Of a stretch of 64,000 nucleotides of DNA, positions 1-23,359 are shown one piece after another. Source of the stretch: Candidatus Babelota bacterium (GTDB taxonomy: Bacteria > Babelota > Babeliae > Babelales > Vermiphilaceae). The notes beneath the pieces were generated by a model, which was given only the letters and a program-made list of their open reading frames with translations, searched no databases and was not told the origin of the DNA. The DNA lies in assembly GCA_049325595.1 (NCBI GenBank), contig JBMOLF010000001.1:32001-96000 (forward strand), read 5' to 3'. Within the stretch, counting starts at the first letter, position 1; every line of letters starts with the position of its first letter. Position numbers and translations under genes: made by a program.

Positions 1-179
1 TCAGTAGTAGTGCGGTAAATAACTTTAATGCGCGAAAGGCCGGTAATATAATGCTCAACCGATTCTAAAAGTGCTTGTATTTGTAATGGCCTATTAAATG
101 AGAAAATAATAAGATCAATATGGTTATTGGCACTGGCTATAAAACTTATACATACCATAACTAAAGCAAATATACGCAT
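1..179 (-). CDS. Partial (N-terminus only) glycosyltransferase-like protein with signal peptide; paralog of 2248..3132
   Basis: Hand translation MRIFALVMVCISFIASANNHIDLIIFSFNRPLQIQALLESVEHYITGLSRIKVIYR aligns with DMVIFSFDRPLQLYALLESVDTYVTGLETINVIYR; runs off the window edge; AAGGA upstream. Confidence 0.8.
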   Translation of the reverse strand, partial: MRIFALVMVCISFIASANNHIDLIIFSFNRPLQIQALLESVEHYITGLSRIKVIYRTTT

Positions 180-274
180 ATTCATTCCTTTTTTTATTGA
201 TGTAATGATTGGTTTATAAAATATTAAATTTTCATATACTAAGCAAATCAACCTCTTAAAAAAAGGACCGTTTA

Positions 275-1084
275 ATGAATCGATTCAAACTAAGTCTGCA
301 TATTGCATGTATGTTATTTTTTACTCTATCTACTTATACTAAACATTTTGTAATAGTTATTCCCTCTTACAACAATAAAGAATGGTATCAAAAAAATCTT
401 GATTCGGTTTTTATGCAACAACATACCGATTTTGAACTTGTCTATATTGCTGATTGTCCTACCGACGGAACTGACACTTTAGTTGAAAATTATTTTAAAG
501 CAATTAACTCACCAATTAAAACTACCTTAATTAAAAATAAAGAACGGGTAGGAGCTCTTGCAAATTTATATAACACTATAGCGCAATGCGACCCGAGTCA
601 CATAATTGTTACCCTTGATGGCGATGATTGGTTTCCTGATGAAAAAGTGTTAACCCACTTAAATCATATTTATTCCCACAACGAAGTGTGGATGACGTAT
701 GGCCAATCGTTGCACCACCCATCAAATCGAATTGGTGGAGCGCGTCAAATTCCCAACGAGGTAATAGCACATAATTCATACCGCTCTTATGATTGGGTTG
801 CAACTCATTTGCGAACATTTTACGCCGGATTGTTTCAACGTATTGCGGTAGAAGATTTAATGTATGAAGGAGAATTTTTTTCAGTCGCCTGGGACCTGGC
901 TTTTATGTTTCCTATGCTAGAAATGGCCGGCATTCATAGCTATTACATTGATCGCATTATGTATGTGTATAACTGCAATAATCCTATAAGCGATTTTAGA
1001 ATTGCCGCACAAAAACAAGCGCAATATGATCGCTATATTAGAACAAAAAAACCGTATGAACCATTAGAATATTTGTTCAATTAA
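275..1084 (+). CDS. Glycosyltransferase family 2 with N-terminal signal/anchor
   Basis: VIVIPSYN, DCPTDGT and LDGDD (DxD) GT-A motifs. Confidence 0.9.
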   Translation: MNRFKLSLHIACMLFFTLSTYTKHFVIVIPSYNNKEWYQKNLDSVFMQQHTDFELVYIADCPTDGTDTLVENYFKAINSPIKTTLIKNKERVGALANLYNTIAQCDPSHIIVTLDGDDWFPDEKVLTHLNHIYSHNEVWMTYGQSLHHPSNRIGGARQIPNEVIAHNSYRSYDWVATHLRTFYAGLFQRIAVEDLMYEGEFFSVAWDLAFMFPMLEMAGIHSYYIDRIMYVYNCNNPISDFRIAAQKQAQYDRYIRTKKPYEPLEYLFN

Positions 1085-1088
1085 ATTT

Positions 1089-1125
1089 AATAAGAGCTCG
1101 TCTAATCACGAGCTCTTATTTTTTT
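1089..1125. terminator. Intrinsic terminator between convergent genes
   Basis: AATAAGAGCTCGT-CTAATC-ACGAGCTCTTATT perfect stem followed by a T run. Confidence 0.8.
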
Positions 1126-1126
1126 G

Positions 1127-2092
1127 CTATCTATGCGCAACAATTTCATAGGAAGGCATAACATGCAATGATACATGGTGTGGTTGGCAATATACCAATG
1201 GATACTGACTTCTTATGGCATCCATAACTAAGGTGTGCCCTACAAATTTAAAATTATCACCCCACCCATGTAGTTGGCCTGAAATATAGCAAAGAGGTGC
1301 TTGAAAGAATTTTTTATCAACAATCATTTGTTGCGTGTTACATGATGATTCAGATAACGCAAACGTAGAAATAAATAAATCTGCACTCAAAGAAATTTCT
1401 GGAACCATAAATACCGGAATCAAATGAATTGCACCTTTTTCAAAAGATTCTGGTATGCGATCGTGTAAAATTACTTCTACATCAGGCATGGTAGCTTTCA
1501 GGAAAAAATATTGCAACGCTAATAATTCCGGCAAATCAATAAGATATAGGGTTGTTTCAGGCATTATCTGCTTAAAAACACTGGCCAAATTACCATAGCC
1601 ACTACCTACTTCCACAATTGAATTTATCGATTCATTAGGCCAGTACTCTAAAACTTTTGCTGCATAATATAAATGGCCTAAACAGTTACTTGAACAATTA
1701 AATTCTTTACAACAACGATCAAGCCCTAAAAAGTCAGACTCGTGAAAAGCTGATAGTTTTTCTTTGGTTTTTGCACTAATGCAATCACGCAAGTATAACA
1801 TTTCATACGATTGTACCACACTTATTCCTTGGCGAACCATGGTATTCCAAATACAATAATGTCGAGTAAAAAAACGATCGGGGTTGCCCAGCAAAATAGT
1901 TTTTACTTCTTGTTTGGTACTCTTCCAAATATCGTGGCAATAGTTACTTTCATGTTGATCAAGACCGGTTGTATGTAAAAAATTACAAAGATTTTTATAT
2001 TTTTCTTGCATATCATACCACAGAGAATCAACATAATTAGTTTGAATTTTAGCTACAAAAAGCAGCAATAATAAACTGATCTGTTTTTTCAT
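1127..2092 (-). CDS. Putative sugar O-methyltransferase (SAM-dependent) with signal peptide
   Basis: IVEVGSGYG, IDLPE and DLFISTFALSE motifs; start moved to ATG 2092 behind AAGGAG. Confidence 0.75.
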   Translation of the reverse strand: MKKQISLLLLLFVAKIQTNYVDSLWYDMQEKYKNLCNFLHTTGLDQHESNYCHDIWKSTKQEVKTILLGNPDRFFTRHYCIWNTMVRQGISVVQSYEMLYLRDCISAKTKEKLSAFHESDFLGLDRCCKEFNCSSNCLGHLYYAAKVLEYWPNESINSIVEVGSGYGNLASVFKQIMPETTLYLIDLPELLALQYFFLKATMPDVEVILHDRIPESFEKGAIHLIPVFMVPEISLSADLFISTFALSESSCNTQQMIVDKKFFQAPLCYISGQLHGWGDNFKFVGHTLVMDAIRSQYPLVYCQPHHVSLHVMPSYEIVAHR

Positions 2093-2247
2093 GACAAACT
2101 CCTTATTTGTGTTGATTAATTTGATGTGAACGAGTTTTACACAGTTGATTGATAATTGCAAAATATCTTTTATGATTTGCTTTTTTTATAAAGTTATGCA
2201 ACGGTATTAGCACCATTTCAAAACAACTTAAATCAAGGGGTTTTCTT

Positions 2248-3132
2248 ATGAAGCGCCAATTTTTACTCTCTTTGCTTTTTGTAAGCATAATGACATCGTG
2301 TCTTGCTCAAAAAGCAGATATGGTTATTTTTTCTTTTGACCGACCGTTACAACTCTACGCATTACTTGAATCGGTAGATACGTATGTAACAGGGCTGGAA
2401 ACGATTAATGTTATTTATCGTGCAAGTTCAGATGAATTTGCTTACGCATACGATTGTATACAGACTGATTTCCCACATGTAATATTTATAAAACAAGGTG
2501 CTAACCCTCGCCAAGATTTTAAGCCTCTTACTATACAGGCAGTAGAAAACACTCCTTCTCAATACATTATTTTTGCCGTCGACGACAATATCATAAAAGA
2601 TTACGTTGATTTAGAAGAATGTATCGAGTTGCTCAACCAAACAAATGCCTATGGATTTTACTTGCGACTCGGCTTAAATATATCCCATTGCTACACGCAA
2701 AACCAACCACAAATAATTCCCGCTCATCAACCAGTAAATAATGAAGTTTATGCATGGATATTCAAAGATGGTAGTTATGATTGGGGATACCCAAATACCG
2801 TTGATTTAACCTTATTTAAAAAAGAAGAAATTTTACCGACCATACGTACCTTATCATTTTATTCACCCAATGTATTTGAATGTGTATGGGCACAAAAAGC
2901 AGACGCTATTATGCAGCATATCGGTCTTTTTTTTGCTGAATCAAAAATTGTAAATCTACCACTTAATATGGTGCAAGAAGATTGGCATAATCGTAACCAA
3001 CAAGAACTTTTACCAGCTCAACAACTTGAGTTATTTTTCGCAGGTAAAAAAATAGATATTAAGCCTTTGTATAAAATTGCAAATCAATCACCCCATATGG
3101 AATATTGTCCTACCTTGATTGATCGTAATTAA
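2248..3132 (+). CDS. Glycosyltransferase-like protein (GT-A fold) with signal peptide
   Basis: IFSFDRPLQL and FAVDD motifs; lies in the GT cluster. Confidence 0.65.
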   Translation: MKRQFLLSLLFVSIMTSCLAQKADMVIFSFDRPLQLYALLESVDTYVTGLETINVIYRASSDEFAYAYDCIQTDFPHVIFIKQGANPRQDFKPLTIQAVENTPSQYIIFAVDDNIIKDYVDLEECIELLNQTNAYGFYLRLGLNISHCYTQNQPQIIPAHQPVNNEVYAWIFKDGSYDWGYPNTVDLTLFKKEEILPTIRTLSFYSPNVFECVWAQKADAIMQHIGLFFAESKIVNLPLNMVQEDWHNRNQQELLPAQQLELFFAGKKIDIKPLYKIANQSPHMEYCPTLIDRN

Positions 3133-3956
3133 AAAAGTTCTTTATGCGGTAATTTAGGATTAAAATAAATTACCGCTGTAGAAACATTTGAAATAGTGTG
3201 AATAAAAAAATCGGTACGTGCTAAAATTAAAACTTCGATGAGAACTTCTCGCCCTGCTTGCGTTCTATTAGATTGCTCGGGATTATAATGAATGGGAAAT
3301 CCATTTGTTGATCGACCAGCCGCAAAAGAAATAACCGGTTTATTAAGTGCAGTTTTTGCGGCCTGTAAAATTTCTTCTTCGTCTGTTGCTACAAAATATT
3401 GGTCTGCATCATACCTATTAGTGCAATCAAAAATTGTTTGTAGAGGAACATGCGGACGTTCAGAATTTTTATCAGTCCGTCTGATATGAATACCAATAGT
3501 TTTTTTACCTTTTATATGCTGTTCATAATAATCATCTACAACTTTTAATATGGATTCATTTACGTATATCCACTTATTAATGAGCTCATTAATTTCTGCT
3601 CGTTGATGGCTACACGGTGGTATAGCGATCAAATTATGACCATCTTTATCAAAATAACTGTTGTGAACATAATCACCATTTTCATAATTCTGCTCAGAGA
3701 CTGGTTTAAAAAAACATGGCCATGCATTTGCATTATTTTTACATTCAACATCACGTTCATCAAAATACAATGAACTCTTATCCCAATATATCACCGGAAC
3801 TTTATTATTTTGCTCGCACCATATTAAATTATTAAGCGCACCAAAAAAAGATGAAAAAAAACCACACCCATGTTGACCAATCACAAACTTTTCATGTGTT
3901 TGAGCAATAAGAGATAAAGAACATATAAAACTAATTAATAAAAGTTTTTTTAACAT
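3129..3956 (-). CDS. NodZ/alpha-1,6-fucosyltransferase-like (GT23/O-FucT-like) protein with signal peptide
   Basis: GFFSSF, IGIHIRRTDK, FVATD and HTISNVS motifs. Confidence 0.8.
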   Translation of the reverse strand: MLKKLLLISFICSLSLIAQTHEKFVIGQHGCGFFSSFFGALNNLIWCEQNNKVPVIYWDKSSLYFDERDVECKNNANAWPCFFKPVSEQNYENGDYVHNSYFDKDGHNLIAIPPCSHQRAEINELINKWIYVNESILKVVDDYYEQHIKGKKTIGIHIRRTDKNSERPHVPLQTIFDCTNRYDADQYFVATDEEEILQAAKTALNKPVISFAAGRSTNGFPIHYNPEQSNRTQAGREVLIEVLILARTDFFIHTISNVSTAVIYFNPKLPHKELF

Positions 3957-4027
3957 ATATCCCCTTTTTTAACACCAAATGGATTAAAAAAGAGGATATA
4001 ATAATTACAAAACATAAGGCAATGTTA

Positions 4028-5005
4028 TTAATACAGGCATATAAGCGCAGGATTTACATATATTTTGTCATATCCTTTGCAAATCATTGATGCATGGAGT
4101 GTCGTATGCTCACATACAACGGGTAAATCATAACCACTATTCGGTATGAAAACTAATGGTAATGGTCTTTGATCACTATTGATAAGTAATGTATAAATGC
4201 GGTAATAAAGATGATTAGTCGCCATGTTCTTATTGAGTATCTGATCACTAAGATGTTCAAGATCTTTGGTAACATACCCACAATACCAACAATCTTTTAA
4301 TGCATTTCGTTTATACAATGCAATACCACCAAAAGCAGAATACACTTTTTGTAAAGGTAAGCTGGGTGCAAATGCAATTGGCTGCTCAAGGCGAATACGC
4401 CAAAATTCTTCACCCAATAATTCAGGACCAAGAGGAAATTGATCATCCCGATAAGCAAAACGATCGTAATGGTAATGATCACCATTTACGCCATTTGCCG
4501 CAATACAATCCCATTGCTCAGTACAATTGAATGATGCAATTACATCGTTTACCTGCCAACCTATCCTAAAATCAAGATCTGTCATTATAATATAGTTATA
4601 ATCCGCAAACAGATCGCTCATTGCTTGTTTGAGCACTTGATTGCGCGCATAGGCAATCAGTTCCATACGACACGGTGCTTTATCGCGCAAAGCATGGCTT
4701 TTGGTCCGATTACTTAACTGCTGGTCAGAAAGATATTCAGATATGATAGTTACTCTTGGATTTTTAATCATCCATGCGTTTAATACATCTAACGTGTTAT
4801 CAGTTGAATTGTTTTCATAAATGATAACCTGATAATCCTTAAAATAATCTCCTAATTGCTCAATCTTTTGCATCATATTTGGCAAACATGATGCAATATT
4901 TTTACCAACACCTAAAATTAATAGTTTTTCATTTTTTGGATTAATAGCTGCGTTCAGGTACCCAACAAAACAACCAAATATAAAAATAAATTTGAAATAG
5001 TTCAT
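4028..5005 (-). CDS. Glycosyltransferase resembling the cryptococcal mannosyltransferase (CAP59/GT69-like) family
   Basis: IIYENNSTDNT, IAYARN, DLD, YDRFAYR, VYSAFGGIALY and CEH motifs; signal peptide. Confidence 0.65.
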   Translation of the reverse strand: MNYFKFIFIFGCFVGYLNAAINPKNEKLLILGVGKNIASCLPNMMQKIEQLGDYFKDYQVIIYENNSTDNTLDVLNAWMIKNPRVTIISEYLSDQQLSNRTKSHALRDKAPCRMELIAYARNQVLKQAMSDLFADYNYIIMTDLDFRIGWQVNDVIASFNCTEQWDCIAANGVNGDHYHYDRFAYRDDQFPLGPELLGEEFWRIRLEQPIAFAPSLPLQKVYSAFGGIALYKRNALKDCWYCGYVTKDLEHLSDQILNKNMATNHLYYRIYTLLINSDQRPLPLVFIPNSGYDLPVVCEHTTLHASMICKGYDKIYVNPALICLY

Positions 5006-5006
5006 G

Positions 5007-5807
5007 TTAATCCTGTTGCGCATATTGTTTTAATTGCTCTAGAATGTAGGCTGCTTGCGCATGATTTTTGCACCCATGCAGCATGTAATAATGTATATCT
5101 GGTTGCGTATACCCATGCTCGTAAGGAATTCTATTTTCGCGCCATGCTTGTATGCTTTCAAAATATGGATCATAAACTGGCAGATATTGAGTCGCACCAT
5201 ATTTCCAAAGCAAAACATTTAATATAGTTTCATCAAAGTTTGGCGCCTTACGACCATATTTTAAGCATGCCTCGTACCATTCTTGTAAAAATGCTCGGCA
5301 AGTGTGTGAAAATAGAATATGCGCATGCACATACGGCATTGATTTATGGGTAACTCCCATTAACTTCATAATCTGATATTGATTTTCAGGATCTTTCGGA
5401 TGTAAAGGACATAGCGGATAGTCTTGTATGGTTTTACATACATCAAATAAGGTATCGACTCCTTTATTTAAAATATCATCTGCTTCGATATAGACCCCAT
5501 AATCCAGCCCTGATTCTAAAATAATACGCACTTTAATAAAAAAAATATGTACTTTGCTTAAATCAACATCAAGTCTACGTTTTATTAAACGAGGATATTG
5601 TGCCGTATCAAAAGGAATTTCGGCATTAATACCATACGCAATTACCGGTCGTGTTGAAAATTCATGTGCACTATCAAGGGTAACTTTAAGCAAATCAAAA
5701 TAATTACTGGTAGCAAAAGTAACAAAACCTTCGGATGGTTGTGTATGCGCATGCATATGCATACCAAGTACACATAAAATAATTACTATATATTTTTTCA
5801 TGTTCAC
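5007..5807 (-). CDS. Putative glycosyltransferase with signal peptide
   Basis: K..IILES...GVYIEADD and DETILN(VLLWK) GT-like motifs; cluster context. Confidence 0.55.
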   Translation of the reverse strand: MNMKKYIVIILCVLGMHMHAHTQPSEGFVTFATSNYFDLLKVTLDSAHEFSTRPVIAYGINAEIPFDTAQYPRLIKRRLDVDLSKVHIFFIKVRIILESGLDYGVYIEADDILNKGVDTLFDVCKTIQDYPLCPLHPKDPENQYQIMKLMGVTHKSMPYVHAHILFSHTCRAFLQEWYEACLKYGRKAPNFDETILNVLLWKYGATQYLPVYDPYFESIQAWRENRIPYEHGYTQPDIHYYMLHGCKNHAQAAYILEQLKQYAQQD

Positions 5808-5816
5808 TCTTTCTGT

Positions 5817-6596
5817 TTATTCAATGCCTAATAAATGAACAAGCTCATTCAATTGCTGTTCATAGTAATCATAGGGACGCAACATATGGCAATCTGTGTA
5901 ATATCCTGATGATACTAATTGTGCATCATAACCCCACCATCCACGGTCGACACGTTTATCAACATGGTGACCGAGCTTTACTAATCGACCCGTTTGTGCA
6001 TGCCATCTATTGAGCGTATGATACAGTATTTGTTGATCAGTCGTCCAACCAAGTCCTAATGCATACCATTGTTTGATAATTTCAGGAATTTGATGTACTG
6101 AATCAACATTGAAAATCTCTTTAAATATGCTTCCTTTAGCAACATTGTAGCACATAGGATATTCGCACATATCTTGTCCTGCAAAAGCACCATCTTTGAA
6201 GGTAACAAAACAATCATCAGGAATATCTTTTACACTCTTTGCAAAATATTCTTTGCTTAAAGGAATCATATCCATATCAGAAATTATACATACTTCATCT
6301 TCAAAATAAGCCGGTGCTAATAACCGAATTACCTGCGCTTGAAAAGAAGTTGGAATACCTTCTATGGGTTCAAAACGAATTACCTCACCAAGAGTTTCAT
6401 CAACTACTACATTAGCTGGTGCAACCAAAAATAGAGTAGGTTGTACTCCTACTAGTTGTTTCCACGTTTTGGCAACAATCGGCCAAAATGGTAAATACAT
6501 AGGATTTGCATCAGATGCGATAATAACCCGGTCTATATGCAACGCTTGTATGCAAGGGGCTATTAACAATAGCCCCATAAATAATATGCTTTTCAT
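5817..6596 (-). CDS. Putative glycosyltransferase with signal peptide
   Basis: IISDMDMIPL (DxD), WTTDQQIL and DCH motifs. Confidence 0.55.
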   Translation of the reverse strand: MKSILFMGLLLIAPCIQALHIDRVIIASDANPMYLPFWPIVAKTWKQLVGVQPTLFLVAPANVVVDETLGEVIRFEPIEGIPTSFQAQVIRLLAPAYFEDEVCIISDMDMIPLSKEYFAKSVKDIPDDCFVTFKDGAFAGQDMCEYPMCYNVAKGSIFKEIFNVDSVHQIPEIIKQWYALGLGWTTDQQILYHTLNRWHAQTGRLVKLGHHVDKRVDRGWWGYDAQLVSSGYYTDCHMLRPYDYYEQQLNELVHLLGIE

Positions 6597-7312
6597 TACT
6601 TTTCACCTAATTGTAGTGGCGCATTGGCAAAATTAACGTATAAATCATCAAAGCCACCAAACTTGGTAATAAAGGTAAAACCTTTTGATTCCAATATTTT
6701 TTGTACATCAGTAGTGTTTTCATTATTCTCAACACTGATTACAAAAATAGGTATGTGATCAAAATCAATCGATTTAATAATATCAAGCTCAGAACCTTCT
6801 GTATCGATTGATAAATAATCAACACGCGTAATGCCATGCTCATCCATAGTTTTATTAAAGGTAATTACGGGTATATCAATGATGGTGTAATAGCTGCCTG
6901 GCGTTGTTGCTAAATACAAGTTCACCACTTTCCACCGATGTGGTTCTTCATCAAAAAATTTCTTGAGACCACTTAATTCTTCTAATTTTGCTATATCAAC
7001 AAATTGCATCATGCCTTCTGTTCCTGCCATGGCAGCTTGTATGCACGTACAATTACGTGCGGCTTTTAAATCAGCAAAAATTCGGGGAACTGGTTCGATG
7101 CATAACCCTTTCCAACCAAGCTCTTTTTCAAAAAAATAACTATTGCTAAAGCAAACACCATTATAAGCACCTATTTCAACAAACGTGCCGTTGCGCATAT
7201 TCTTAAAATAATGTTCATTCACGAACTTATCTTGGCCAACTTGGCTATAATATTCTGCAACACATGATGAAGCTATAAGCAATAAACTTATTACTATTTT
7301 TTTCATAGACAA
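6596..7312 (-). CDS. FkbM-family methyltransferase with signal peptide
   Basis: YSQVGQD, FVEIGAYNG..SNS, IEP and LSIDTEGSE motifs. Confidence 0.9.
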   Translation of the reverse strand: MSMKKIVISLLLIASSCVAEYYSQVGQDKFVNEHYFKNMRNGTFVEIGAYNGVCFSNSYFFEKELGWKGLCIEPVPRIFADLKAARNCTCIQAAMAGTEGMMQFVDIAKLEELSGLKKFFDEEPHRWKVVNLYLATTPGSYYTIIDIPVITFNKTMDEHGITRVDYLSIDTEGSELDIIKSIDFDHIPIFVISVENNENTTDVQKILESKGFTFITKFGGFDDLYVNFANAPLQLGEK

Positions 7313-7318
7313 TCTTTC

Positions 7319-8611
7319 TTAAGCTGCAGCAGCCGCTATTTGTGTTTGCTGTTGAGCAATCAAGGATTTGCGATCTTCATAGAATTTAAGATTTTTCTTT
7401 AAATGTTCCATCTCTGGTCTATTTTCAAGTGCACAACGAACACCTTTTTCTCCCATGTCATATTCACCGATATACCAGGAAGAAATACCAACCACATCGT
7501 GACGCTCAAAATCATAAATGTTTTTATCTACAAACAATACATCACTAGTTGGATACGGTTGTTCACATGCACGGTGAGCAAAAAGATATGCCAGTGCATG
7601 CTCTCCTTTTGCCAAATAATGTTGAGCAATTTTTACCAATGGTTCTGTTCGGCATGATCTATAAGAATATGCTTTTAAATAATATTCAAGCGCTTTGGCC
7701 CAGGTATATTCGTCTTTTTCTTCTTTTTGCGCAAGCCATTCAGTAATTTGCGCTAAGCGATACCAGGTAACAAAATTCTCTTCGTACCAGCCAGGCAATG
7801 TGCTACGGTGTTTATAGTATTTATGTGCATTCTCAAGATCACCTAAACATGCATACGTTTGCGCAAGGTAAAATGTAGTACGCGGATCATTAGGGTGCTC
7901 ATTATGATATTTGAGTAATAAATCTAAATCACGTTTCCAACGAGCCATAGATTTATCGGCACCAGTTTTTGATGGCCGCAAATCAAAATATATTTCACCA
8001 GGCACACGATACGGAGTTCCTTCCATAATTGTTTCATGCACAACCCCACCAAAACGTAACTGGGCACTCTTGCGCAATAAACGTTGGGTATAAAAATCAA
8101 TGCTTGGATTCATGATACGCACTAAATAAGACGATTCTATAATATTATCTTTGTGCTCTTGGCAATAATCCATTAATGCCGGCATATTAACCATGTACCA
8201 CTCAGCATCGGGCATCATTAAAAACACTGCATTAGGGAATTTTTCTTCTGCAAGTTCTAGGCCTCTATTACGCGATGTTGCAAAATCAACAAAAGGTTCT
8301 TGAGCAATAGCTGCATTAGCAATACCATTTTCGGTAAAAAATTCTTCTGCTTTTTCAATTGTTTTATCAGTCGATCCCGTGTCGAATACAAAAAAACCAA
8401 GCGCACTTTTTTGTTCTTCACTTAATCCAACAATATATGATTCTAGGGTTGGTTTTATTACCGGTTCTTCGTCTTTGACCATAAGAACAACAACAAGCAT
8501 TAATTGATCGTACGATTTAAAACTATTCATAAATCGATTAGTTGCCCGTAATGTAAGCGGCACAAGGGCCAATAAGGTAATTAAAGACCAAATTCGTAAT
8601 AATATTTTCAT
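7319..8611 (-). CDS. GT2 glycosyltransferase fused to TPR repeats
   Basis: MVKDE, DTGSTDKT, DFATSRN, DAE and GVVHE motifs, followed by TPR-like FYLAQTY repeats. Confidence 0.85.
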   Translation of the reverse strand: MKILLRIWSLITLLALVPLTLRATNRFMNSFKSYDQLMLVVVLMVKDEEPVIKPTLESYIVGLSEEQKSALGFFVFDTGSTDKTIEKAEEFFTENGIANAAIAQEPFVDFATSRNRGLELAEEKFPNAVFLMMPDAEWYMVNMPALMDYCQEHKDNIIESSYLVRIMNPSIDFYTQRLLRKSAQLRFGGVVHETIMEGTPYRVPGEIYFDLRPSKTGADKSMARWKRDLDLLLKYHNEHPNDPRTTFYLAQTYACLGDLENAHKYYKHRSTLPGWYEENFVTWYRLAQITEWLAQKEEKDEYTWAKALEYYLKAYSYRSCRTEPLVKIAQHYLAKGEHALAYLFAHRACEQPYPTSDVLFVDKNIYDFERHDVVGISSWYIGEYDMGEKGVRCALENRPEMEHLKKNLKFYEDRKSLIAQQQTQIAAAAA

Positions 8612-8632
8612 CTTCTACTTTCCTTTTTTTTG

Positions 8633-9406
8633 TTATTCGTAATATGCGTAAATATCTCCCCACAGCAAATTGCCAATTTTGGGCAACTGTTGACTTCGTA
8701 GATCTTGTAATGTTGTTAATAACTCAGATGCTGATAGCCAGACAGAACTTACAAATTCAGTACTTTCTGCTATTACAAAATTAAATTTGGTATACCCCAG
8801 TTTTTGCAATCGTTCTAAACAGTTACGACTGTTATGCTCAGTTTCGCAGGCATACTCAAAAGAAATAAGTTGAATAGGATAAGATAATCCTTTAAGAACT
8901 TCATACTCAAAGTTTTCTACATCGATTTTGCAAAATACCGGCGTGCCATGTTTTTGTATCATATGATCTAATGTTGCAATGGGCACTTGAATAACTGTAT
9001 CCCACTTAAAACTGCCACAGCTACCATCAGAAAAGCGCGATTGCTCAATCCACTCACGTGAAAATGTTGAAAGGGTATCAGCATCGCACTGATAAAAAGG
9101 TAATACTCCTTCTTTTTCACCAATGGCAAGAGGCTCAAGCAAAATATGATCATTATTATTAAATCTATTTTTTAGATACCTTTGTAAATGTGGCTGCGGT
9201 TCAAAACAGACAACACGTGCACCTAAACTTGTCAACGATGCTGCTTTTTTCCCTTGGTGTGCACCAATATCAAATACAAGGTCACCGGTTTTAATAAATG
9301 GCTTTAAAAACTCAGAATATCCTATTGGATCAAATTGATCTTTGATGGTGTATGAAAAAATTATTGATGTGCTAAATAGTAAAATCCAAAGATATGATTG
9401 CTTCAT
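8633..9406 (-). CDS. FkbM-family methyltransferase with signal peptide
   Basis: VFDIGAHQG, FEP and KIDVENFEYEVLKG motifs. Confidence 0.9.
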   Translation of the reverse strand: MKQSYLWILLFSTSIIFSYTIKDQFDPIGYSEFLKPFIKTGDLVFDIGAHQGKKAASLTSLGARVVCFEPQPHLQRYLKNRFNNNDHILLEPLAIGEKEGVLPFYQCDADTLSTFSREWIEQSRFSDGSCGSFKWDTVIQVPIATLDHMIQKHGTPVFCKIDVENFEYEVLKGLSYPIQLISFEYACETEHNSRNCLERLQKLGYTKFNFVIAESTEFVSSVWLSASELLTTLQDLRSQQLPKIGNLLWGDIYAYYE

Positions 9407-9472: not shown

Positions 9473-11374
9473 CTAAAGTACTCGTCGTATTACTACTCCT
9501 GCTGCCGGCTGGCTCGCATTGTAAGTAGTAACTTGATATACAGAACAATTATCTTTATTCACACGAGCTTGTATCATAAAACTTGTACCTACCGAAGCAT
9601 TAATAAAAAATGTTTTTGTTAGGGGCATTGTAACATTATTAACTGGATCAGCGGTAAAGTTACCAATAGCCATACTAGTTAGATATGCCGTACTATCAAC
9701 AACTGCTTGTACTGCAGCGGTAGTTACACCGCTAGGTCCTAGCAAAAAATTTACCCAATAGGTAACTTCATAAAGCCCTGCCAATGTACAGGTAAATTGA
9801 GTAGCACCACTCAATGTTGTTGCTGTCCACCCATTGGGCGTCAATGCAGCTGAACTCATAACAATTCCTGTCCATGAGTTATTTGGTAATGTCGATGAAC
9901 TAATGCGATAATTACTTAAATATCCTTGCGGAGAACTATCAAATGTTCCGGTATTTCCTTGTGGACCAGTAGCTCCTGTGTTGCCAATTAGTCCCTCTGG
10001 ACCAGTTGCACCAGTAAAGCCAGCTGGGCCCGTGTTGCCGGTTGCTCCTTGTGGTCCTGTTGCACCGGTATTTCCCGTTGCACCTATAGATCCAGTATTA
10101 CCAATTGGTCCGGTAGATCCAGTAGTATTTGAAATAGTAACTATGCCAGCAATACCACCTGCACCAAAACTCGCATCAAAACTACCATCAGAATTTAATT
10201 GCGTGAGCATAATAAATGATGATGAGCCTGCATTAGCTATCCCTGCGGTAATAATATTTCCGTTAGTGTTAATTCTTAATGCTTGTGCTTGATTTGAAAT
10301 AGCAAGATTAGTAGTTACTATGCCATTCATTCCAAAAGAGGTATCAATCGCTCCCGCAGAGGTATACCGTACTACTGTCGTTTGTGTTGGATCTCCACCA
10401 TTCACTGATCCACCACCAACAACAATAGATCCGTCTGTTTGCAAGGCACCACAAAAACCAAATGCTTGCGTATTAATGTTCGTTGTTACAATACCATTAG
10501 TACCAAAAGTAGCATCAAGCGCGCCAGCAGGAGTAAATCGGGCCATTGATATAACAGAAAATCCATCTAATATTGATGATCCAATTAAAACAGGTTTGCC
10601 ATCAGATTGCACCAAAACTTTTTGTGCAGTATCAGAACCAGTAATATTCGCTATGCTTACACCACCAGTTCCAAAAGTGGCATCAAGAACTCCTGTTGAA
10701 AGATAGCGCGCTACAAAAAAATTTTGTTGCAAACCAGTAGTAACTGATCCGCCTACCACTATGGTACCATCACCCGGTAAAGCAAGTGAAAATAATGCAA
10801 TGCCATCATCTTGGGTAATAGTGGTAATACCATTAGTCCCAAAGCTATTATCAAGAACTCCTTCACTGGAATATCGCGCAACAAATCCATAATTTGTATT
10901 GGTTATTATTGCCGATCCTGCAATAACAATTGAATCATCAGGTTGAATAGCAAGCGCATATGCAGAGGCTGCAGAACCTAACGTAGTTTCTACAATACCA
11001 CCAGAGCCAAAGGTAGTATCTAAGTCACCAGAGCTTAAATAACGAGCAACTATAATAATATACTGATCATTCATTGTTGCGGTACCGGCAATTATAATTT
11101 TTCCCGTTGATTGTAGTCGCACACTATACACTTTAGCATTTGAACCAATTGAAAGTTGCGCAACTCCTTGAACGCCAAATGAACTATCTAAAGCTCCTGA
11201 TGAAAGATATTGAGCAAGCACTGATTGAGTATTTGAATATCCTGCCGTTAACAAAGATCCATTTGATTGTATAACAAAACTTCGAGCAACGCCATTTAAA
11301 GGTCCACTGCTCGAATTAATCGATAAAGTAATTAGTAGTAATGATATTAGCATCTTACATAAAATTTGCTTCAT
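9473..11374 (-). CDS. Secreted delta-60 repeat + short collagen + BclA/C1q-like head protein
   Basis: Signal peptide; repeats QxDGxIxxxG...ARYxxxGxLDxxFGxxG; about 20 GXY triplets; C-terminal GW...[11 protein letters not shown] domain. Confidence 0.85.
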
Positions 11375-11417
11375 GCTTTCTATGCTCCCCTATAAATAAA
11401 TTAATTCTTTAATCATA

Positions 11418-11447
11418 AAAAAATAGCGCGGCAAAAATACTGCGCTC
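11418..11447 (-). terminator. Probable intrinsic terminator
   Basis: Minus strand AGCGCAGTATTTTTGCCGCGCT followed by ATTTTTTT. Confidence 0.55.
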
Positions 11448-11451
11448 TAAT

Positions 11452-14136
11452 TTAGAATAACTCTATTTGCACTACCGTATTTGCCGTTGCAGAGCCAGCT
11501 CCACGAACTACTTTCACTGAAATAGAATCACCTGGATTAAATGCTACTGAGACTGAGTTGTTAATGGCTGAGGTATTAGTACCACTTAAAGAAACCGATA
11601 ATACAGTATCAACACCATTTTTTCTTACGGTAAAGGTGTCGGTATTACCAACGCCTGGCGCAGTAACAGCACGTACATCAATAGATTTTACCAAAACTTT
11701 TTGTGATACACGTATAAATGCCTCTGTAGCATTGGGAGATGTTGTACCTGGCCACATAAAATTAGTTCCAGCCGGCAATGCCCCTTGATCGGCAAATAAT
11801 ATAAGAGCAGGTTGCGTTACCGTGCCAAAACCTAACCCATTTGCATTGTTATTAATCAAATTAGCCGAACCTAATGACAAAGTCCCATTTGTTTGCGAAA
11901 TATCTGCGCCATCACCAGCTACTGATACGAGTCGACCAGTCAATTGAGCACCAGTGCCTATGGTCTCAATACCAATATAACCGGAGTTACCGGTAATACC
12001 CGTTAATCCTCTAACCAAAATATTTACATCTCGAATGTTAAATGAACTATTTTCTACCAGAACTCCTCTTTTTGGACCAGTTCCAGCCGATAATACTTTA
12101 ATAGTCGTCGTACGCACATTGGTAGCTTCTTCTGGGCTAATGCCTGTGGCTGCGATACAATGTATACCATAAACGGCTGAACTACCGGTCGGTGATGCCG
12201 TTGAGTTGTCTACGGTAACATTAACCGTATTAATTCGCGCATCGAGATTTGTTCTTCCAGGGAATACTATTCCGCGTATTTGCTGATGCTGATTAGATTG
12301 CAAGAGAATTGATATATCTTGCAGTCGGGTGTCAGTGCCCATGGTTACTAAATCCGTTGGTCCGGTGACTCCGGTAAGAAAAATATTGGTATTGAGTAAA
12401 GATAATCCACGCAATGAAACCCCATCTTTAATAGTTACAATTTCTGGATAGTTACCCGGGAAAACCCACACAACCGTACCTGGCAATGCAGCATTCATCG
12501 CAGCGTTAATAGTTTTAAACGGAGGGCCGTTCAATTGGCCAGTGCTATCGTTACCATAAATCTGGTCAACCCGCGCTACATTACCAAAAGCTTGTGTTCC
12601 AGTAGCTGGAGCAGGACCAGTAGCACCGGTGTTACCTTGTATCCCTTGTGGCCCCGTTGCACCAGTATTACCCTGTGATCCTTGGGGACCTGTTGCGCCT
12701 GTGTTACCAGTTAGTCCCTCTGGGCCAGTATTCCCTGTATTACCCGTAGTTCCTTGAGCTCCTTGTGGGCCAGTCGCTCCTGTATTACCAGTATTCCCCA
12801 TTGCACCAGTTGGTCCGGTAAAACCAGTATTACCTCCCGGACCAGTAAAACCTGTTGATCCCTGAAATCCTGTGTTTCCTGTTGGTCCTGTTGGATTAGG
12901 TTGTATACAACTTGCAATGCCTCCAAAGCCAAAAGCTTGGTCAAACGTTCCATCAGCTAAATATCGTACAAGAGTAAAATAAACAATACCATTAATTTCT
13001 GCATAACCACCTATGACAATTTTGCCATCAGGTTGTAAAACTATTGATCTTGATTCAGAGTTATCCCCTACCGATGTTTCTTTTATACCATCGATTCCAA
13101 AGGTCATATCAAGAGCTCCATTAGATGCATACCGAACAGTAGCCATGTATAATTGGCTTGCCAAACTTGATGCATTACCAGTTACTACAATATTGGTATC
13201 TGGCTGAATTAACATGCTAAGACCAAAAGATCCCTTGGCAATAGGAGTGGTTACAATACCTCCCGTACCAAAACCACCATCTAGGTTCCCCGCTGAAGTA
13301 TATCGCACCAAAGATATTGTATTTAACTCATTAATAAGTGAAGTCCCCGTAACTACTATGTTACCATCAGCTTGAATAACCAAAGAATGTGCAATATCTG
13401 TAGAACTTATGGATGTAGTAACAATACCTCCTGATCCAAAGGTGCCATCAAGAATACCTCCTGTTGTATATCTCGCTACTGCAAATTTTGTTGTAATATC
13501 ATTGATGGTAAAACCTGCAACGACTATGCTTCCATCAGATTGTAATGCTACCGCATTAGCACCGGTAAAGGTATCAATTCCCGTCGTAACAATACCTCCA
13601 CTACCAAATGTAATATCAAGAACACCTAAAGAGCTATATCGAGCAAGAATAATCTCAGTACCATTATTGCGAGCAACTGTACCTGCAATAACAATTTTAT
13701 TATCTGGTTGTACAACAATCGCACTTGCTACACACCCATCATCTACTGGCGTGGTTACAATGCCACCAGTACCAAAGGTTACATCCAAAACACCAGCGAT
13801 TGTATACCGAGCAAGAACAATCTGAGGAACTCCTGAAATAATAGCCTGCCCAGCAATTATAATGCTCCCATCAGATTGCAATGCACATCCATATGATACA
13901 GCTATTGATCCTACCGTGGTATCTACAACGCCATTTGTACCAAATGAACTATCTAATGAACCATTACTCGTATAACGCACCGTTCGTAACTGGTTATTAT
14001 TAAAACCGGTTGCCACAATTTTGTTGTCAGATTGAAGCACAATACCATTAATAATCCCCTGAGGCGTACTGCAAGGCCTACTACATGTAGCAATAACACA
14101 TAACAATAATCCAAGATAATTTATAAGTTGCTTCAT
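11452..14136 (-). CDS. Secreted delta-60 repeat + collagen + pectin-lyase-like beta-helix (tailspike-like) protein
   Basis: Delta-60 repeats; about 30 GXY triplets; [10 protein letters not shown]...PFKTINAA...VFPGNY beta-helix cap motif. Confidence 0.8.
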
Positions 14137-14150
14137 TATCTATTCCTTTT

Positions 14151-16448
14151 TTAAATCTTAGTTATCGTAATAGAAATACTTGGGCCAGTTAATCCTGTTG
14201 GAGCTGCATCAAAATTATTTCCTGCTCTCAGTCGCACCGCTGCTGCATTTGCCGCAAATCTAAATCTCAGTATTTGAGCTATACCGCTGCAATTTAAGAT
14301 AAAACTTTTCGATATGGGTAAAACTTGATTAGTAGTATTTAAATCAATTGAGCTTTCACTGCCATTTACTAAATTATCATTTAATGTTGCTCTAAAAGCT
14401 GTTGTCATTGTAGCGCCAGCTATTTTTTCAACTTCTGCATCATATTGAACTAAATATAAGCCTGTTACGCTGTTAACAAACGATGCTGTTCCAACTGTAT
14501 GAGACCATCCATTAATTTGTTGATTGATATTAAATAGAATATCTTGATAGGTATTTGCAAGCGCAATCGCTTGGTTGGTTGTATCAAATGAAAATACATA
14601 ATTTGCTGCTGGAGGTATAACTCCCGTATTACCCTGCGGACCAGTATTACCAGTTGCCCCCTGTGGACCAGTATTACCGGTATTGCCAGTTGATCCTGTT
14701 GCACCAGTTGGCCCCGTAGAACCTGTACTACCTTGTGGTCCTGTATTACCCGTAGCACCACTATTACCTTGAATACCCTGGGGACCAGTTGCACCTGTAG
14801 CACCGGTTGGCCCTAAGTCACCTTGGGCGCCGGTATTACCAGTGCTACCGGTTATACCTTGTATTCCTTGTGGACCTGTTGCTCCAGTAAATCCAGTATT
14901 TCCTTGAGGACCGGTATTTCCTGTAGATCCTTGAATTCCCTGCGCACCGGTAGCTCCCGTATTGCCAGTAGAGCCGGTGGCACCCACTGTTCCTTGTGGA
15001 CCAGTTGCTCCTGTATTACCAGTATTTCCCATCGCACCAGTTGCTCCGGTAAAACCAGTAAAGCCGGTATTTCCCGTTGCCCCTGTCATACCATTATTTC
15101 CAGTGGGACCAGTATTTCCTGTAGTGCCTTGCACACCTTGGGGACCCGTATTACCAGTAGTACCTTGAATACCCTGTGGGCCAGTATTTCCAGTAGTTCC
15201 AGTTGTACCTGTGTCTCCCTGAGGCCCCGTGTTGCCTTGTGGACCCGTATTGCCTTGGGGGCCGGTATCACCAGTAGCACCCGTACTACCTGGGTCACCA
15301 GTCACACCTGTATTTCCTTGAGGACCAGTATTACCCTGAGACCCGGTTTGGCCAGTATTGCCTGTTGAGCCTTGTGGACCGGTATTTCCTGTCACTGAGG
15401 GCCCGGTATTACCCTGTGGGCCTGTGTTACCTTGTGCTCCGGTTTGGCCCGTATTACCGGTAGTTCCTTGTAATCCAGTTATTGATGGTCCGGTATTGCC
15501 TTGAGGGCCAGTATTACCCTGCAACCCTTGTGGACCGGTGTTACCTGTTGCTCCCGTATTTCCTGGATTTCCTGTTGCACCGGTATTACCTTGCGGACCT
15601 GTATTGCCTGGATCTCCTGTAGCACCCGTATTTCCCGTGCTCCCTTGTGGTCCGGTGTTTCCGGTAACTGATGGTCCAGTATTACCTTGAGCGCCTGTAT
15701 TACCGGTCGCACCAGTAGAACCGGTAGTTCCTGTTGGTCCACCTTCGGGTCCTTGTGGGCCAGTATTACCTTGTGGGCCCGTTGCACCGGTGTTACCTTG
15801 CCCACCACCTCCGCCTCCCGTGCAAATACATTGAAGACCCGGATTGATGATTTTACCGCATACGAGTAAATCTCCTCCTATACGCACATTGTGGCGGACA
15901 CACAAGTTATTAAAAACTTTTACTGCTTTTCTATGAAGTAGTTGATCATTTTCATCATTATTGTAATGATTACCAACAAATCTACCATCCTCATCAAACT
16001 GCGCATAAAAACTATGTTCTTGGTCGGCAAAAACACCAATTGATATCATGCGCTCATTATCAATAAAACAATCAAAATTATTGATTGTCGCATCAACAAT
16101 CACACATCTAGTTAGTCCGTTTTCGCCAAATTTTTCATCAATTTCTCCGGCAACATAACGAATTAAGAAAATATGGGTATCAAGACCTTCTTGTCTAACT
16201 CCCGTTAACAAACAGGCATCATTACCAATTTCAACTACTCCCCAAGAGGCAAAATCAAACAAAAAAGGAGTTTTAATAATACGTGTAGTTGTCAGTTGAT
16301 TATTATCATTGTCATTTAAGATAAGTTTAATAGTAAGATACTCATCATCTTCACACAAAATAGAATCTGCTAATGTTTTTTGATGAGATAAAAATAATAA
16401 AGAGAAAATAACTATAAGTTTTTCAAAGCAATTTTTTGACCACATCAT
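14151..16448 (-). CDS. Secreted long collagen-like protein with BclA/C1q-like head
   Basis: Signal peptide; GGDLLVCG neck; about 130 GXY triplets (GNT/GPQ/GAT); C-terminal beta domain. Confidence 0.9.
14616..15806 (-). repeat. Collagen Gly-X-Y coding repeat, about 397 codons
   Basis: 9-nt periodic GGN-NNN-NNN; recurrent GGTAATACTGGNCCACAA. Confidence 0.95.
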
Positions 16449-16543
16449 AACTACTCTTTTTTTAAAATTATTAGTACTACTCTATGATGAAATCTATTAA
16501 AAAAGAAAAAATGGTCAAAAAAAATTTTATGAAAAAATACAGT

Positions 16544-16571
16544 AAAAAAGGCCACCATGTAAGATGGCCTC
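16544..16571 (-). terminator. Probable intrinsic terminator
   Basis: Minus strand AGGCCATC-TTACAT-GGTGGCCT followed by TTTTT. Confidence 0.6.
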
Positions 16572-16584
16572 TTGTAAGATAAGA

Positions 16585-18441
16585 TTATAATTTAGAAATA
16601 GTTATTGTTGCACTTGGACGCGTTGTTCCTGATCCATTATTAGCAGTAATTTGGTTATTAGTTGTTGTTCCCGTAAACTGCAAAACTATCTGATCAGAAG
16701 CTACACAATTTACTAAAAATGATTGATGTACCGGCAACAATTGTCCAAGTAATGCGCCTAAAGTAATAGATGTTTGACTTCCCGGAATTTCCGCGCCATT
16801 TAATAATGCCCGAGCTGATATGGTAGAAGCAAGCGCAACAACTGATGTATTATTAGCTAATAAACGATACTCAACTAAATAAGTACCATCAGCAGGACAG
16901 GTAAATGTTGCTGTACCACCGGTGTGAGTCCAACTATTAATTATTTGATTGGTTCCAAAGGTAATGTTTTGAAAACTATTTGCTATTGTCACTGATTGAT
17001 TAGTAGTATCATAAGCAAACACATAATTAGCTGCGGTTGCTATTGGACCTGTATTACCCGTAGTTCCTTGAATACCTTGTGGGCCAGTATTACCTGTTGC
17101 ACCTTGTGCACCTACTGGACCCTGATCACCCGTGTTACCAGTAAATCCTTGTGGGCCAGTATTGCCCGTAGGGCCAGTATTTCCGGTGCAACAGCTGGGT
17201 CTTTGTATGGGACCTGCTATGCCATCAACACCAAATGATTGGTCAAGCGATCCATCTAATAAATAACGTGCTAAGGTAAAATAAATGATCCCATTAAATT
17301 GTGAATAACCAGCAACCACTAATTTAGTATCTGGTTGTTGTACAATAGTCCGCGCACCAGCATTATCACCAATACTCGTAATTACGACACCGGTTGAATT
17401 AAAACTGGTATCAATAGTTCCATTTGTTAAATAACGTGCCGTAGTAAATTTTTCAATACTAGCAAAACTTACCGTACTCCCTGTTGCGGTAATAGCACCA
17501 TCAGCTTGCACTAAAACACCCAAACTAAATGATCCATTTTCTTCGGTGGTTGTTACAATACCACCAGTTCCAAAACCAGTATCAAGTACACCGCTTGAGG
17601 TGTAACGAGCCACCGTTATACTTGTTGTAGTCGACGAAGAATAACCTGAAGCTACAATGCTGCCATCAGATTGAATTGCAATTGATCTGACTATATCTGA
17701 TCCAGTAATGGTAGTTGTTACATAACCATTTCCTGATCCAAAGGTTGCCGTATCTAATGCACCGCTTGTTGTATAACGAGCAATGGTAAAATTAGTACCA
17801 CTTCCATTAACCGATAATCCTCCCACTACAATTTTGCCATCTGATTGTAATGCAATACTATAGGCAGCAGATGATGAATCTATAAGCGTAGTAACAATAC
17901 CGCCCGTACCAAATGTACCATCGAGCGTTCCGGTTGAATCATAGCGTGCAACAACAATATTAGGTGTGCCGCTGATTACCGCAACACCCGCAATCACAAT
18001 ATTACCATCTGGTTGTATGACAACTGCATTAGCTGTTGCACCGTCACCTATTGAGGTAGTAACAATACCACTAGTACCAAAAGTGCCATCAAGCACACCA
18101 CTACTATCATAACGCGCTAATGCTATTTGAACATCCGAAGGTACTCCATATCCTGAAACAACGATATTTCCATCAGATTGTATTGCTACACCCGATGCTT
18201 GCGATGAACTACCAATTAAGGTTGAAACAAATCCTCCTGTTCCAAAGGTTTCATCTAACGATCCATCTGCATTATAGCGAGCAGTTTGAAAGGTTGAAGC
18301 AGAGTTATCAAATCCAGTTGCAACTATTTTGGCGTCACTTTGTAATGCTATTGAATTAATTTGACCATCAACGGCGCCATTAATATGCCACACACATAAA
18401 TTGGTTAATAATAATATTAAGATTTTACTTTTTTTGATCAT
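16585..18441 (-). CDS. Secreted delta-60 repeat + short collagen + BclA/C1q-like head protein
   Basis: About 7 delta-60 repeats; CC then about 16 GXY triplets; [12 protein letters not shown] head. Confidence 0.85.
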
Positions 18442-18572
18442 GTTACTCCTCTAAAAATGAGGTCTTTCTATATAAAAAAATTAATTTCATTGCATATATT
18501 TTGTTAATTCATTAATACCTCCTCTTTTAAAAAAGGCCTCATAATAAAAACAAAAAAAATCAGATTGTTTTT

Positions 18573-19181: not shown

Positions 19182-19363
19182 ATTTTTCTCCTTGAAAAAA
19201 ATTAAACACTAAGCCGACCTTACTTTATCGATTTACATAAAATCAATATCCTATATTTCTTATTGTACTAATACCCAATTTATAATTGATTATTAGATCC
19301 TATTAAGACAATCTAAGATTTAGTCAATTATCATATGTTATCACTCTATTTGCATAGCACCAA

Positions 19364-20806: not shown

Positions 20807-20808
20807 AA

Positions 20809-22602: not shown

Positions 22603-22630
22603 TACAAACACTCATCTCTTTTTTAAAAAA

Positions 22631-23167: not shown

Positions 23168-23359
23168 CCCCTACTTTTTAATATGCTTAATAGGGAACTT
23201 AACACGGGATGCTCAAAAATCAACCCTCAACTGATTTTTTTAGGAATACAAAATCAGCATATCTTATTAAATAATTGAACCGCCATTTTGGTAGAAAAAA
23301 TAAATAGGTTTCTATTTTTTTTAGCAAGGGATGATGCTTTTTGCATCACCCCCCATTCA

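Follow-up and report, generated by a model that had tools for sequence, protein, structure and literature searches.

Sec-type leaders on the glycosyltransferases and methyltransferases of a Dependentiae gene island suggest sugar transfer outside the cytoplasm

Leloir glycosyltransferases, nucleotide-sugar tailoring enzymes and methyltransferases using S-adenosylmethionine (SAM) are, in the textbook view, cytoplasmic enzymes, and glycosylation in the periplasm uses lipid-linked donors. The 64,000-nucleotide stretch of DNA analyzed here (the window, G000:C1:32001-96000; coordinates prefixed with C1 refer to the contig and bare ones to the window) begins inside a gene island for enzymes of these kinds that carry hydrophobic N-terminal leaders, which raises the question of where they act, and on what. 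The source genome, G000 (1.29 Mb in 24 contigs, 35% GC, 95% complete), has the bacterial housekeeping genes gyrB, dnaJ, sufBCD, glmS, and lepB within the window, three island proteins have their closest named homologues in records of "Candidatus Dependentiae" or Babeliales, and from these sequence matches we place it in the Dependentiae. The answer we favor, at a probability of roughly 55%, is that exported Leloir enzymes would glycosylate and methylate exported collagen-like fibers, using nucleotide sugars and SAM from the host.

Positions 1 to 9406 are made up of 11 open reading frames (ORFs) of at least 80 aa. For nine of them, Pfam, a match to a PDB sequence or the predicted fold supports a role as glycosyltransferase or methyltransferase. 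The whole island comprises 18 genes (C1:24444-41406), with members of GT2, GT6, GT10, NodZ-like, CAP59-like, two Pfam-less GT-A, and FkbM/class-I methyltransferase families. Its upstream part extends over C1:24444-32251, where seven genes lie wholly before the window and encode a GT2-GT10 fusion, a protein with no assigned family, two class-I methyltransferases, and GT2, GT6 (2.5e-49), and GT10 enzymes. A leader was found in 11/11 ORFs of positions 1 to 9406 and in 18/18 island genes, the latter after the start of one methyltransferase had been corrected. This upholds the original prediction that nearly every enzyme bears an N-terminal signal or anchor peptide, and the six peptides quoted in it are all present at ORF N-termini in this region.

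The leaders follow a common plan. In all 11 ORFs, a positively charged start precedes a hydrophobic core, which ends in a small residue before the polar mature end. The net charge of the n-region is at least +1 in 17 of the 18 island proteins (0 for C1:27900-28634), and the hydrophobic cores span 10 to 18 residues, with at most 15 in 16/18 (by a home-made measure). Judged by eye, Ala ends most leaders, and a lenient -3/-1 small-residue rule, which takes the earliest candidate, found a candidate cut site in 18/18. No twin-arginine translocation (Tat) motif was present in the 18 island leaders, and two of them contain possible lipoboxes. In the leader-bearing GT2, Gmd, Fcl, RmlB-like, RmlD-like, and Ugd proteins of the genome, Pfam profile positions 1 to 5 fall at residues 22 to 32, the catalytic domain beginning at residue 21 to 32, and AlphaFold2 (AF2) models of the proteins at 2248-3132 and 5817-6596 have a detached helix at residues 2 to 16 and the first strand at residues 22 to 23. 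From their sequences, the island leaders look like short, cleavable, Sec-type signal peptides.

The enzymes had also been likened to those of the Golgi. In Golgi type II enzymes, an uncleaved span of about 17 to 25 residues leads into a stem that is tens of residues long. The island resembles the eukaryotic Golgi type II glycosyltransferases in having an N-terminal hydrophobic segment and, on our reading, a noncytoplasmic catalytic domain, and the two have GT6, GT10, GT23-like, and CAP59/Anp1-like enzymes in common. Unlike the Golgi enzymes, the proteins of G000 have no long span, no stem, and cleavable-looking ends, and a search of 252 membrane protein candidates turned up no nucleotide-sugar antiporter. 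Because the cores are short and no stem stands before the catalytic domain, which starts a few residues behind the leader, the leaders are better described as cleavable signal peptides than as Golgi-type anchors, and the Golgi-like N-anchor topology is not supported.

The window opens with the N-terminal part of a GT-A enzyme (3-251, minus strand; whole gene C1:31310-32251; a row of alignment A1), with the leader MNMRIFALVMVCISFIASA. The remainder of this gene lies upstream of the window, and its product is a paralogue, at 48% identity, of the Pfam-less GT-A fold glycosyltransferase encoded at 2248-3132 (plus strand), which has the leader MKRQFLLSLLFVSIMTSCLA and was assigned from its AF2 model, Foldseek and the invariant residues D112-D113. 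Between the two lie a GT2 glycosyltransferase (275-1084, plus strand; leader MNRFKLSLHIACMLFFTLSTYT; Pfam PF00535, 2.1e-17, domain from residue 27) and a class-I methyltransferase-like protein (1127-2092, minus strand; leader MKKQISLLLLLFVA), the latter a weak assignment with a subthreshold match to Methyltransf_2 in Pfam (0.0032) and nothing significant in a PDB sequence search. All remaining genes of the region are on the minus strand. A NodZ/FUT8-like (GT23-like) putative fucosyltransferase (3129-3956; leader MLKKLLLISFICSLSLIA) matches NodZ in the PDB (2hhc, E 3.6e-5) and, weakly, FUT8_N_cat and NodZ in Pfam, and is followed by a CAP59/Anp1-like GT-A enzyme (4028-5023; leader ...MNYFKFIFIFGCFVGYLNA; PF11735 5e-6, PF00535 6e-6, PF03452 4e-4). 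The second Pfam-less GT-A fold enzyme, of the retaining type (5817-6596; leader MKSILFMGLLLIAPCIQA), was again assigned by AF2 and Foldseek, with D106 and D108 invariant. Two FkbM-family methyltransferases, at 6596-7312 (leader MKKIVISLLLIASSCVA, with a possible lipobox; PF05050 2.8e-20, 73.6 bits) and 8633-9406 (leader MKQSYLWILLFSTSIIFS, the least hydrophobic and a borderline case; PF05050 6.3e-17, 62.7 bits), both exceed the curated PF05050 cutoff of 22.7 bits. They are separated by a protein with a GT2-like domain and TPR_14 repeats (7319-8611; leader MKILLRIWSLITLLALVPLTLRA; PF00535 1.9e-4), which scores 21.9 bits against the PF00535 cutoff of 23.3 bits and reaches 23.3 bits in a six-frame search.

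One enzyme-sized protein of the region, encoded at 5007-5807 (minus strand; leader MKKYIVIILCVLGMHMHA), has no assigned family, with no match in Pfam or in a PDB sequence search. Its look-alikes come from a language model only: the ESM Atlas clusters carry PF03407 (51%) and PF01501 (20 to 99%), making a GT8/Nucleotid_trans-like transferase possible, as a lead only. The nearest of these language-model and structure look-alikes are almost all viral clusters, from Uroviricota and some Nucleocytoviricota, and fusions to FkbM, GT1, or methyltransferase domains occur in several of them. Paralogy of this protein with that of C1:26245-27180 was considered and rejected, as the match was weak (E 1e-4) and lay partly over the leaders.

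Leaders are not rare in this genome. A first heuristic, which flagged 59% of ORFs and admitted alternative starts and multi-pass membrane proteins, was replaced by a stricter home-made rule calling for a leader and no other transmembrane segment. Under this rule, 584 of 1319 crude ORFs (44%) were flagged genome-wide, and 56% of ORFs have any N-terminal hydrophobic segment. A random 45 of the flagged ORFs resembled ordinary Sec leaders, and 25 unflagged ones were mostly ribosomal proteins, synthetases and the like. In positions 1 to 9406, ten of the 11 ORFs were flagged by the stricter rule, and 8633-9406 was flagged by the first heuristic only. For Chromulinavorax destructans, a cultured member of the Dependentiae, 44% of coding sequences are reported to have signal peptides by Phobius (Deeg et al. 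2019, PMC6561590); G000 is thus like C. destructans in its phylum, in this share, and in Sec as the proposed route. Because leaders are common in the phylum, the surprise voiced in the original prediction has to be discounted.

Calculated by hand from the base rate of 44 to 56%, and with neighboring genes being nonindependent, 11/11 leaders would arise by chance with p of about 1e-4 to 2e-3, and 18/18 with p of about 4e-7 to 3e-5. After one start correction, made when the hypothesis was already known, a run of 30 consecutive flagged genes extends over C1:7713-40611, a length reached in 0/5000 shuffles. Before the correction, the island on C1 did not stand out, owing to one miscalled start and the borderline gene at 8633-9406; the longest run then was one of 16 genes at another sugar locus (C10:34547-49911), reached in 91/2000 shuffles.

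The leaders are also widespread among homologues. When the best 120 homologues of each of three families were taken, 116 were flagged as leader-bearing for GT6 (the other four look truncated or mis-started), 108 for the 2248-3132 family, and 95 for the CAP59-like protein of 4028-5023, some of the latter named Chlamydiia and Rhabdochlamydiaceae; the names given in these sets were only Dependentiae, Babeliales, or Chlamydiae. Among orthologous loci, 21/29 were flagged for the 2248-3132 family, the other eight having hydrophobic stretches or a fusion, and 22/24 for the 5817-6596 family. A genome of the same genus, G107, has a syntenic island with orthologues of 17 of the 18 genes and collagen-like genes on both sides; no orthologue of 8633-9406 was found in that island. 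Across these orthologues, residues 2 to 22 are 23% identical (89/383), compared to 66% (3183/4817) for the rest, and the hydrophobic core is kept in 17/17. A kept property on a drifting sequence is what a working signal peptide looks like.

The leaders are not a feature of every sugar enzyme in G000. Leaderless ones include GlmS, a GalU-like nucleotidyltransferase (Pfam domain from residue 5), a GT4 enzyme, MurA, and a GT28-like protein, and both GT2 (C10:50583-51356, Pfam domain from residue 4) and FkbM (C10:52250-52849) also occur as leaderless copies near each other. In the latter stretch (C10:50583-52849), the leaderless GT2, a multi-pass membrane protein of 340 aa that falls in no Pfam family, and the leaderless FkbM stand side by side, and this may be a conventional polyprenol-phosphate sugar route coexisting with the leader-tagged enzymes. 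Soluble enzymes of nucleotide-sugar metabolism (Ugd, Gmd, Fcl, and RmlB/D-like) carry leaders as well. At C10:36-48 kb, Ugd, two GT2 enzymes, a NUDIX protein, a Gmd-like enzyme, Fcl, and Gmd are all leader-tagged, as are, at C9:72-80 kb, an RmlB-like and an RmlD-like enzyme, two Methyltransf_24 proteins, one of them matching rhamnosyl O-methyltransferase/CmcI, a GT-D fold protein, and others. Leader-bearing ankyrin-repeat proteins are interspersed at the C10 sugar locus. Apparent leaders on enolase, alanine racemase, and GlmU were discarded, the N-terminal extensions looking like miscalled starts; the GlmU ORF (C12:28747-30303) has a 35-codon leader-like upstream extension, with the Pfam domain from residue 43, and its real start is probably an internal Met.

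For the two Pfam-less GT-A families, AF2 models were computed from alignments of orthologues. The model of 2248-3132 (predicted local distance difference test [pLDDT] score, 92.3) matched SpsA, GnT-I, and TarP in Foldseek at E 3e-8, and that of 5817-6596 (pLDDT, 93.5) matched ABO transferases, glycogenin, and GT8 at E 4e-7; the template modeling (TM) scores of the top matches were 0.45 to 0.59. D112-D113 are invariant across 26 sequences of the first family, and D106 and D108 across 18 sequences of the second. Both families have a predicted GT-A fold and, in their alignments, a conserved acidic DXD-type motif. PDB sequence searches with alignment A1 and with 5817-6596 gave nothing significant. 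The 2248-3132 family, which has no Pfam model, was present in 103/201 sampled genomes of the phylum, and the 5817-6596 family in 24/151. The former, to which the homologues P0250 and P0296 belong, has 1494 database members at E up to 0.001, and is often fused to a GT2 domain in proteins of 500 to 600 aa.

Much of the machinery to export such proteins is encoded in the genome. SecY, SecE, SecG, SecD, SecF, and YidC were found, as were the lipoprotein enzymes Lgt and LspA, two secretins and platform proteins of a type II secretion system or type IV pilus. Signal peptidase I (LepB), the enzyme that would cut the leaders, is encoded within the window at 60507-61496 (minus strand; Pfam Peptidase_S26, 1e-32). 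A computed search of membrane-protein families covered 252 candidates, with E up to 1e-5 or 1e-7, and all statements on membrane families refer to these. The only lipid-carrier-related families found were those of the peptidoglycan set, MraY, MurJ, FtsW/RodA, and BacA. Wzx, Wzy_C, Bac_transf, STT3, and PMT had no match, many candidates having no family at all and distant forms being possible. In the proposed site of modification, the periplasm, the system would be like PglB/PglL-type and GT-C lipid-carrier glycosylation, but such lipid-carrier systems need cytoplasmic glycosyltransferases, a flippase and an oligosaccharyltransferase, and the latter two were not found among the candidates in G000.

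Enzymes outside the cytoplasm would need donors there. The nucleotide-sugar transporter families TPT, UAA, and Nuc_sug_transp had no match, and the genome encodes two TLC nucleotide transporters and four EamA carriers with no assigned substrate. NTP_transferase matches number only two, GalU-like and GlmU, with no GDP-mannose pyrophosphorylase for the Gmd/Fcl route among them, and MetK was not found in the 95% complete genome when the C-terminal domain of S-adenosylmethionine synthetase was sought. Export of nucleoside diphosphate (NDP) sugars by the bacterium itself, which the original prediction had allowed for, therefore lost ground, with no nucleotide-sugar transporter family detected; supply by the host fits better, because the two NTP_transferase matches include no GDP-mannose pyrophosphorylase and MetK is missing. 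The four EamA carriers together with the missing MetK would fit import of SAM from the host. C. destructans is described as a diderm that enters the host cytoplasm and sheds vesicles (PMC6561590). Uptake of host ATP through TLC carriers means that nucleotides must reach the periplasm, and nucleotide sugars and SAM could, we infer, reach it likewise.

The island is flanked by candidate acceptors. An array of leader-bearing collagen-like genes (9473-24760, minus strand; Pfam Collagen, DUF5122, and BclA_C) adjoins it, with members at 9473-11374, 11452-14136, 14151-16448, 16585-18441, 19364-20806, 20809-22611, and 23360-24760. There are 13 further leader-bearing collagen-like genes upstream of the window (C1:7713-24335) and three at 33897-36677. 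Many of the proteins have BclA_C heads, some with BclA_C scores below the cutoff, and Thr occupies Y in 243 of 422 G-X-Y triplets (58%; the seven array ORFs and the three at 33897-36677). BclA_C and the 2248-3132 family co-occur: the family is present in 48/62 genomes with a BclA_C match versus 55/139 without (odds ratio 5.2, with kinship ignored and BclA_C detection weak). Those 55 genomes, which have the GT-A family and no BclA_C match, show that the association with collagen has exceptions. In G120, G036, G172, and G186, no more than about 25 kb separates BclA_C genes from members of the GT-A family. Three of the collagen-like proteins (9473-11374, 11452-14136, and 16585-18441) begin with a DUF5122 beta-propeller followed by collagen repeats, and in one of these a BclA_C head forms the end, which makes it an uncommon kind of surface protein in three parts.

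BclA of Bacillus anthracis is an exosporium glycoprotein glycosylated with rhamnose and anthrose, in the mother-cell cytoplasm, by leaderless enzymes. G000 is like the BclA system in the collagen-like GXT repeats with a BclA_C head and in the neighboring genes for deoxyhexose synthesis, glycosyl transfer, and sugar methylation, and unlike it in that acceptors and enzymes both have Sec leaders. By analogy with BclA, the collagen-like fibers are likely targets of the island enzymes.

Put together, the island would encode soluble glycosyltransferases of the Leloir type and methyltransferases that use SAM, made with cleavable Sec signal peptides. Their place of action would be past the inner membrane: the periplasm, the cell surface or, once released, a host compartment. 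The most probable acceptors would be the collagen proteins whose genes lie on either side of the island, which are Thr-rich, BclA-like, and themselves predicted to be exported by Sec. UDP-, GDP-, and dTDP-sugars and SAM would be supplied by the host, and the leader-tagged Ugd, Gmd, Fcl, and RmlB/D-like enzymes of the two other loci would tailor host nucleotide sugars in the same compartment. That the enzymes would act outside the cytoplasm is supported at the level of sequence. Leader anatomy, its conservation, the contrast with leaderless housekeeping enzymes, the predicted enzyme folds, and the lack of lipid-carrier glycosylation families among the 252 membrane candidates were computed directly; export and cleavage, compartment, acceptor, and donor source are what we infer.

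Several points weigh against this proposal. At a base rate of 44 to 56%, a leader alone is weak evidence in G000, and the home-made heuristic gives false positives such as a Rossmann strand of MurG. In several proteins, positive charges flank the core at both ends, so that charge alone does not give the orientation. The NAD(P)-dependent and metal-dependent enzymes would have to fold and load their cofactors outside the cytoplasm, and no NDP-sugar transporter or porin was identified among the candidates. GT6, GT10, and GT23-type enzymes usually extend glycans, and no protein-priming transferase was identified. The 55 sampled genomes that have the 2248-3132 family with no BclA_C match also count here.

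Part of the proposal would survive if the leaders were not cut. As signal anchors, or in a few cases lipoprotein anchors, they would keep the enzymes attached to the inner membrane on its periplasmic side, where action would still be extracytoplasmic; this is the Golgi-like type II arrangement of the original prediction. Uncharged runs of up to 17 to 20 residues in several proteins, the lipobox-like motif in two proteins of a genome encoding Lgt and LspA, and the fact that cleavage is predicted only are compatible with this, but for a stable membrane span the cores are short, they end in a small residue (Ala in most), and no stem intervenes between leader and catalytic domain, and we regard uncut anchors as unlikely. 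Should the hydrophobic N-termini instead only tether enzymes that face the cytoplasm, with glycans built there as usual, the textbook expectation for NDP-sugar and SAM enzymes would be kept, and the positive charges on both core flanks of several proteins would suit it. The combination of a charged n-region, a short core, and an AXA-like end is, however, the signature of Sec export, the same leaders occur on the soluble enzymes Gmd, Fcl, Ugd, and RmlB/D-like, G000 also has GT2 and FkbM copies with no leader, and neither a flippase nor an oligosaccharyltransferase was detected among the membrane candidates, which leaves a cytoplasmic tether highly improbable. That the leaders are an artifact of wrongly called start codons has next to no probability in our view. 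Three crude-call ORFs did have wrong starts (C1:27081-27854, 1127-2161, and GlmU): the gene at 1127-2092 starts with the ATG at 2092, not the TTG at 2161, MKKQISLLLLLFVAKIQT beginning at this internal ATG of ORF 1127-2161 with AAGGAG in front, and for the methyltransferase gene C1:27081-27854 the corrected start is an internal ATG that comes directly after the stop codon of the gene before it. Against an artifact, Shine-Dalgarno-like motifs (AAGGAG or AAAGGA) precede most leader starts, and leaders recur in independently called database proteins (95 to 116 of 120 per family) and in all 17 G107 orthologues.

A different kind of alternative accepts export and changes the target: the enzymes would be secreted effectors that remodel host glycoconjugates or drain host nucleotide sugars, and would not decorate the bacterium's own fibers. 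The GT6, GT10, NodZ/FUT8-like, and CAP59/Anp1-like enzymes belong mostly to eukaryote-type glycan-building families, the C10 sugar locus includes leader-bearing ankyrin-repeat proteins, the GT-A family occurs in the 55 genomes with no BclA_C match, and the secretome of C. destructans has been read as host-directed (PMC6561590). We nevertheless hold an effector role to be rather improbable, as collagen-like genes tightly flank the island in both G000 and G107, BclA_C genes lie near GT-A members in the four further genomes named above, and the two families co-occur with the odds ratio given there.

Leloir enzymes that use host-cytosol UDP-sugars outside the bacterium are known: Legionella Lgt and SetA, the large clostridial toxins, and NleB. 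These are single host-targeting enzymes that are not known to have Sec leaders and travel by type 3 or type 4 secretion systems or by toxin uptake, unlike the multi-enzyme line of G000, which lies beside presumed self acceptors. The nearest precedent comes from Chlamydia, which secretes glycogen enzymes. In Chlamydia trachomatis, glycogen is synthesized in the inclusion lumen by enzymes, including a Leloir glycosyltransferase, that are placed outside the cell and use host UDP-sugar, as reported by Gehre et al. (2016, PMC4829429). G000 would share with it an obligate intracellular life, normally cytoplasmic carbohydrate enzymes outside the cell, and a feed of host UDP-sugar. Chlamydia, as described there, uses type 3 secretion, makes glycogen and has UDP-glucose brought into the vacuole by host SLC35D2, whereas G000 has predicted Sec signal peptides, a large glycosylation and methylation line with sugar tailoring, and probably a glycoprotein coat. 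The C. destructans paper lists proteases, nucleases, hydrolases, and ankyrin proteins, and the string "glycosyl" occurs 0 times in its main text (PMC6561590). Judged by titles and the openings of abstracts, the papers returned by literature searches give no description of signal-peptide-bearing glycosyltransferases in Dependentiae.

More broadly, and only tentatively, we suggest that Dependentiae and, to judge from homologues, some environmental Chlamydiae may have a complete line for nucleotide-sugar-dependent glycosylation and for methylation that operates in the periplasm or immediately outside the cell and is fed directly by host sugars and SAM, with no lipid carrier, flippase, or nucleotide-sugar transporter. 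If so, this would be a bacterial counterpart of the Golgi lumen and a fourth mode of bacterial protein glycosylation, in which exported Gmd, Fcl, Ugd, and RmlB/D-like enzymes tailor sugars on site. Obligate intracellular bacteria could then shift surface-glycan synthesis into a compartment bathed in host metabolites, which would reconcile extreme genome reduction with an elaborate glycoprotein coat and explain how a parasite of 1.3 Mb, lacking the synthesis of GDP-mannose and of SAM, could have a fucosylated, methylated collagen coat. Two Pfam-less GT-A families, one with about 1500 database members, would also be given a function, and likely determinants of uptake by amoebae would be named. 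The system could be tested, as cultured Dependentiae exist.

Two further observations concern proteins outside the island. An ankyrin-repeat-looking protein with a Sec-type leader is encoded in the window at 38616-40319, matching the pattern in C. destructans, most of whose ankyrin proteins carry signal peptides (PMC6561590). Eukaryote-type families also occur elsewhere in G000, on contigs C10 and C21, as an RPE65 carotenoid-oxygenase homologue (1e-110), an NCA2 domain protein (7e-15), and a weak mitochondrial-carrier match (1e-6), the loci of which, taken together, are L036:11485-13110, L075:17161-18600, and L042:1618-2472.

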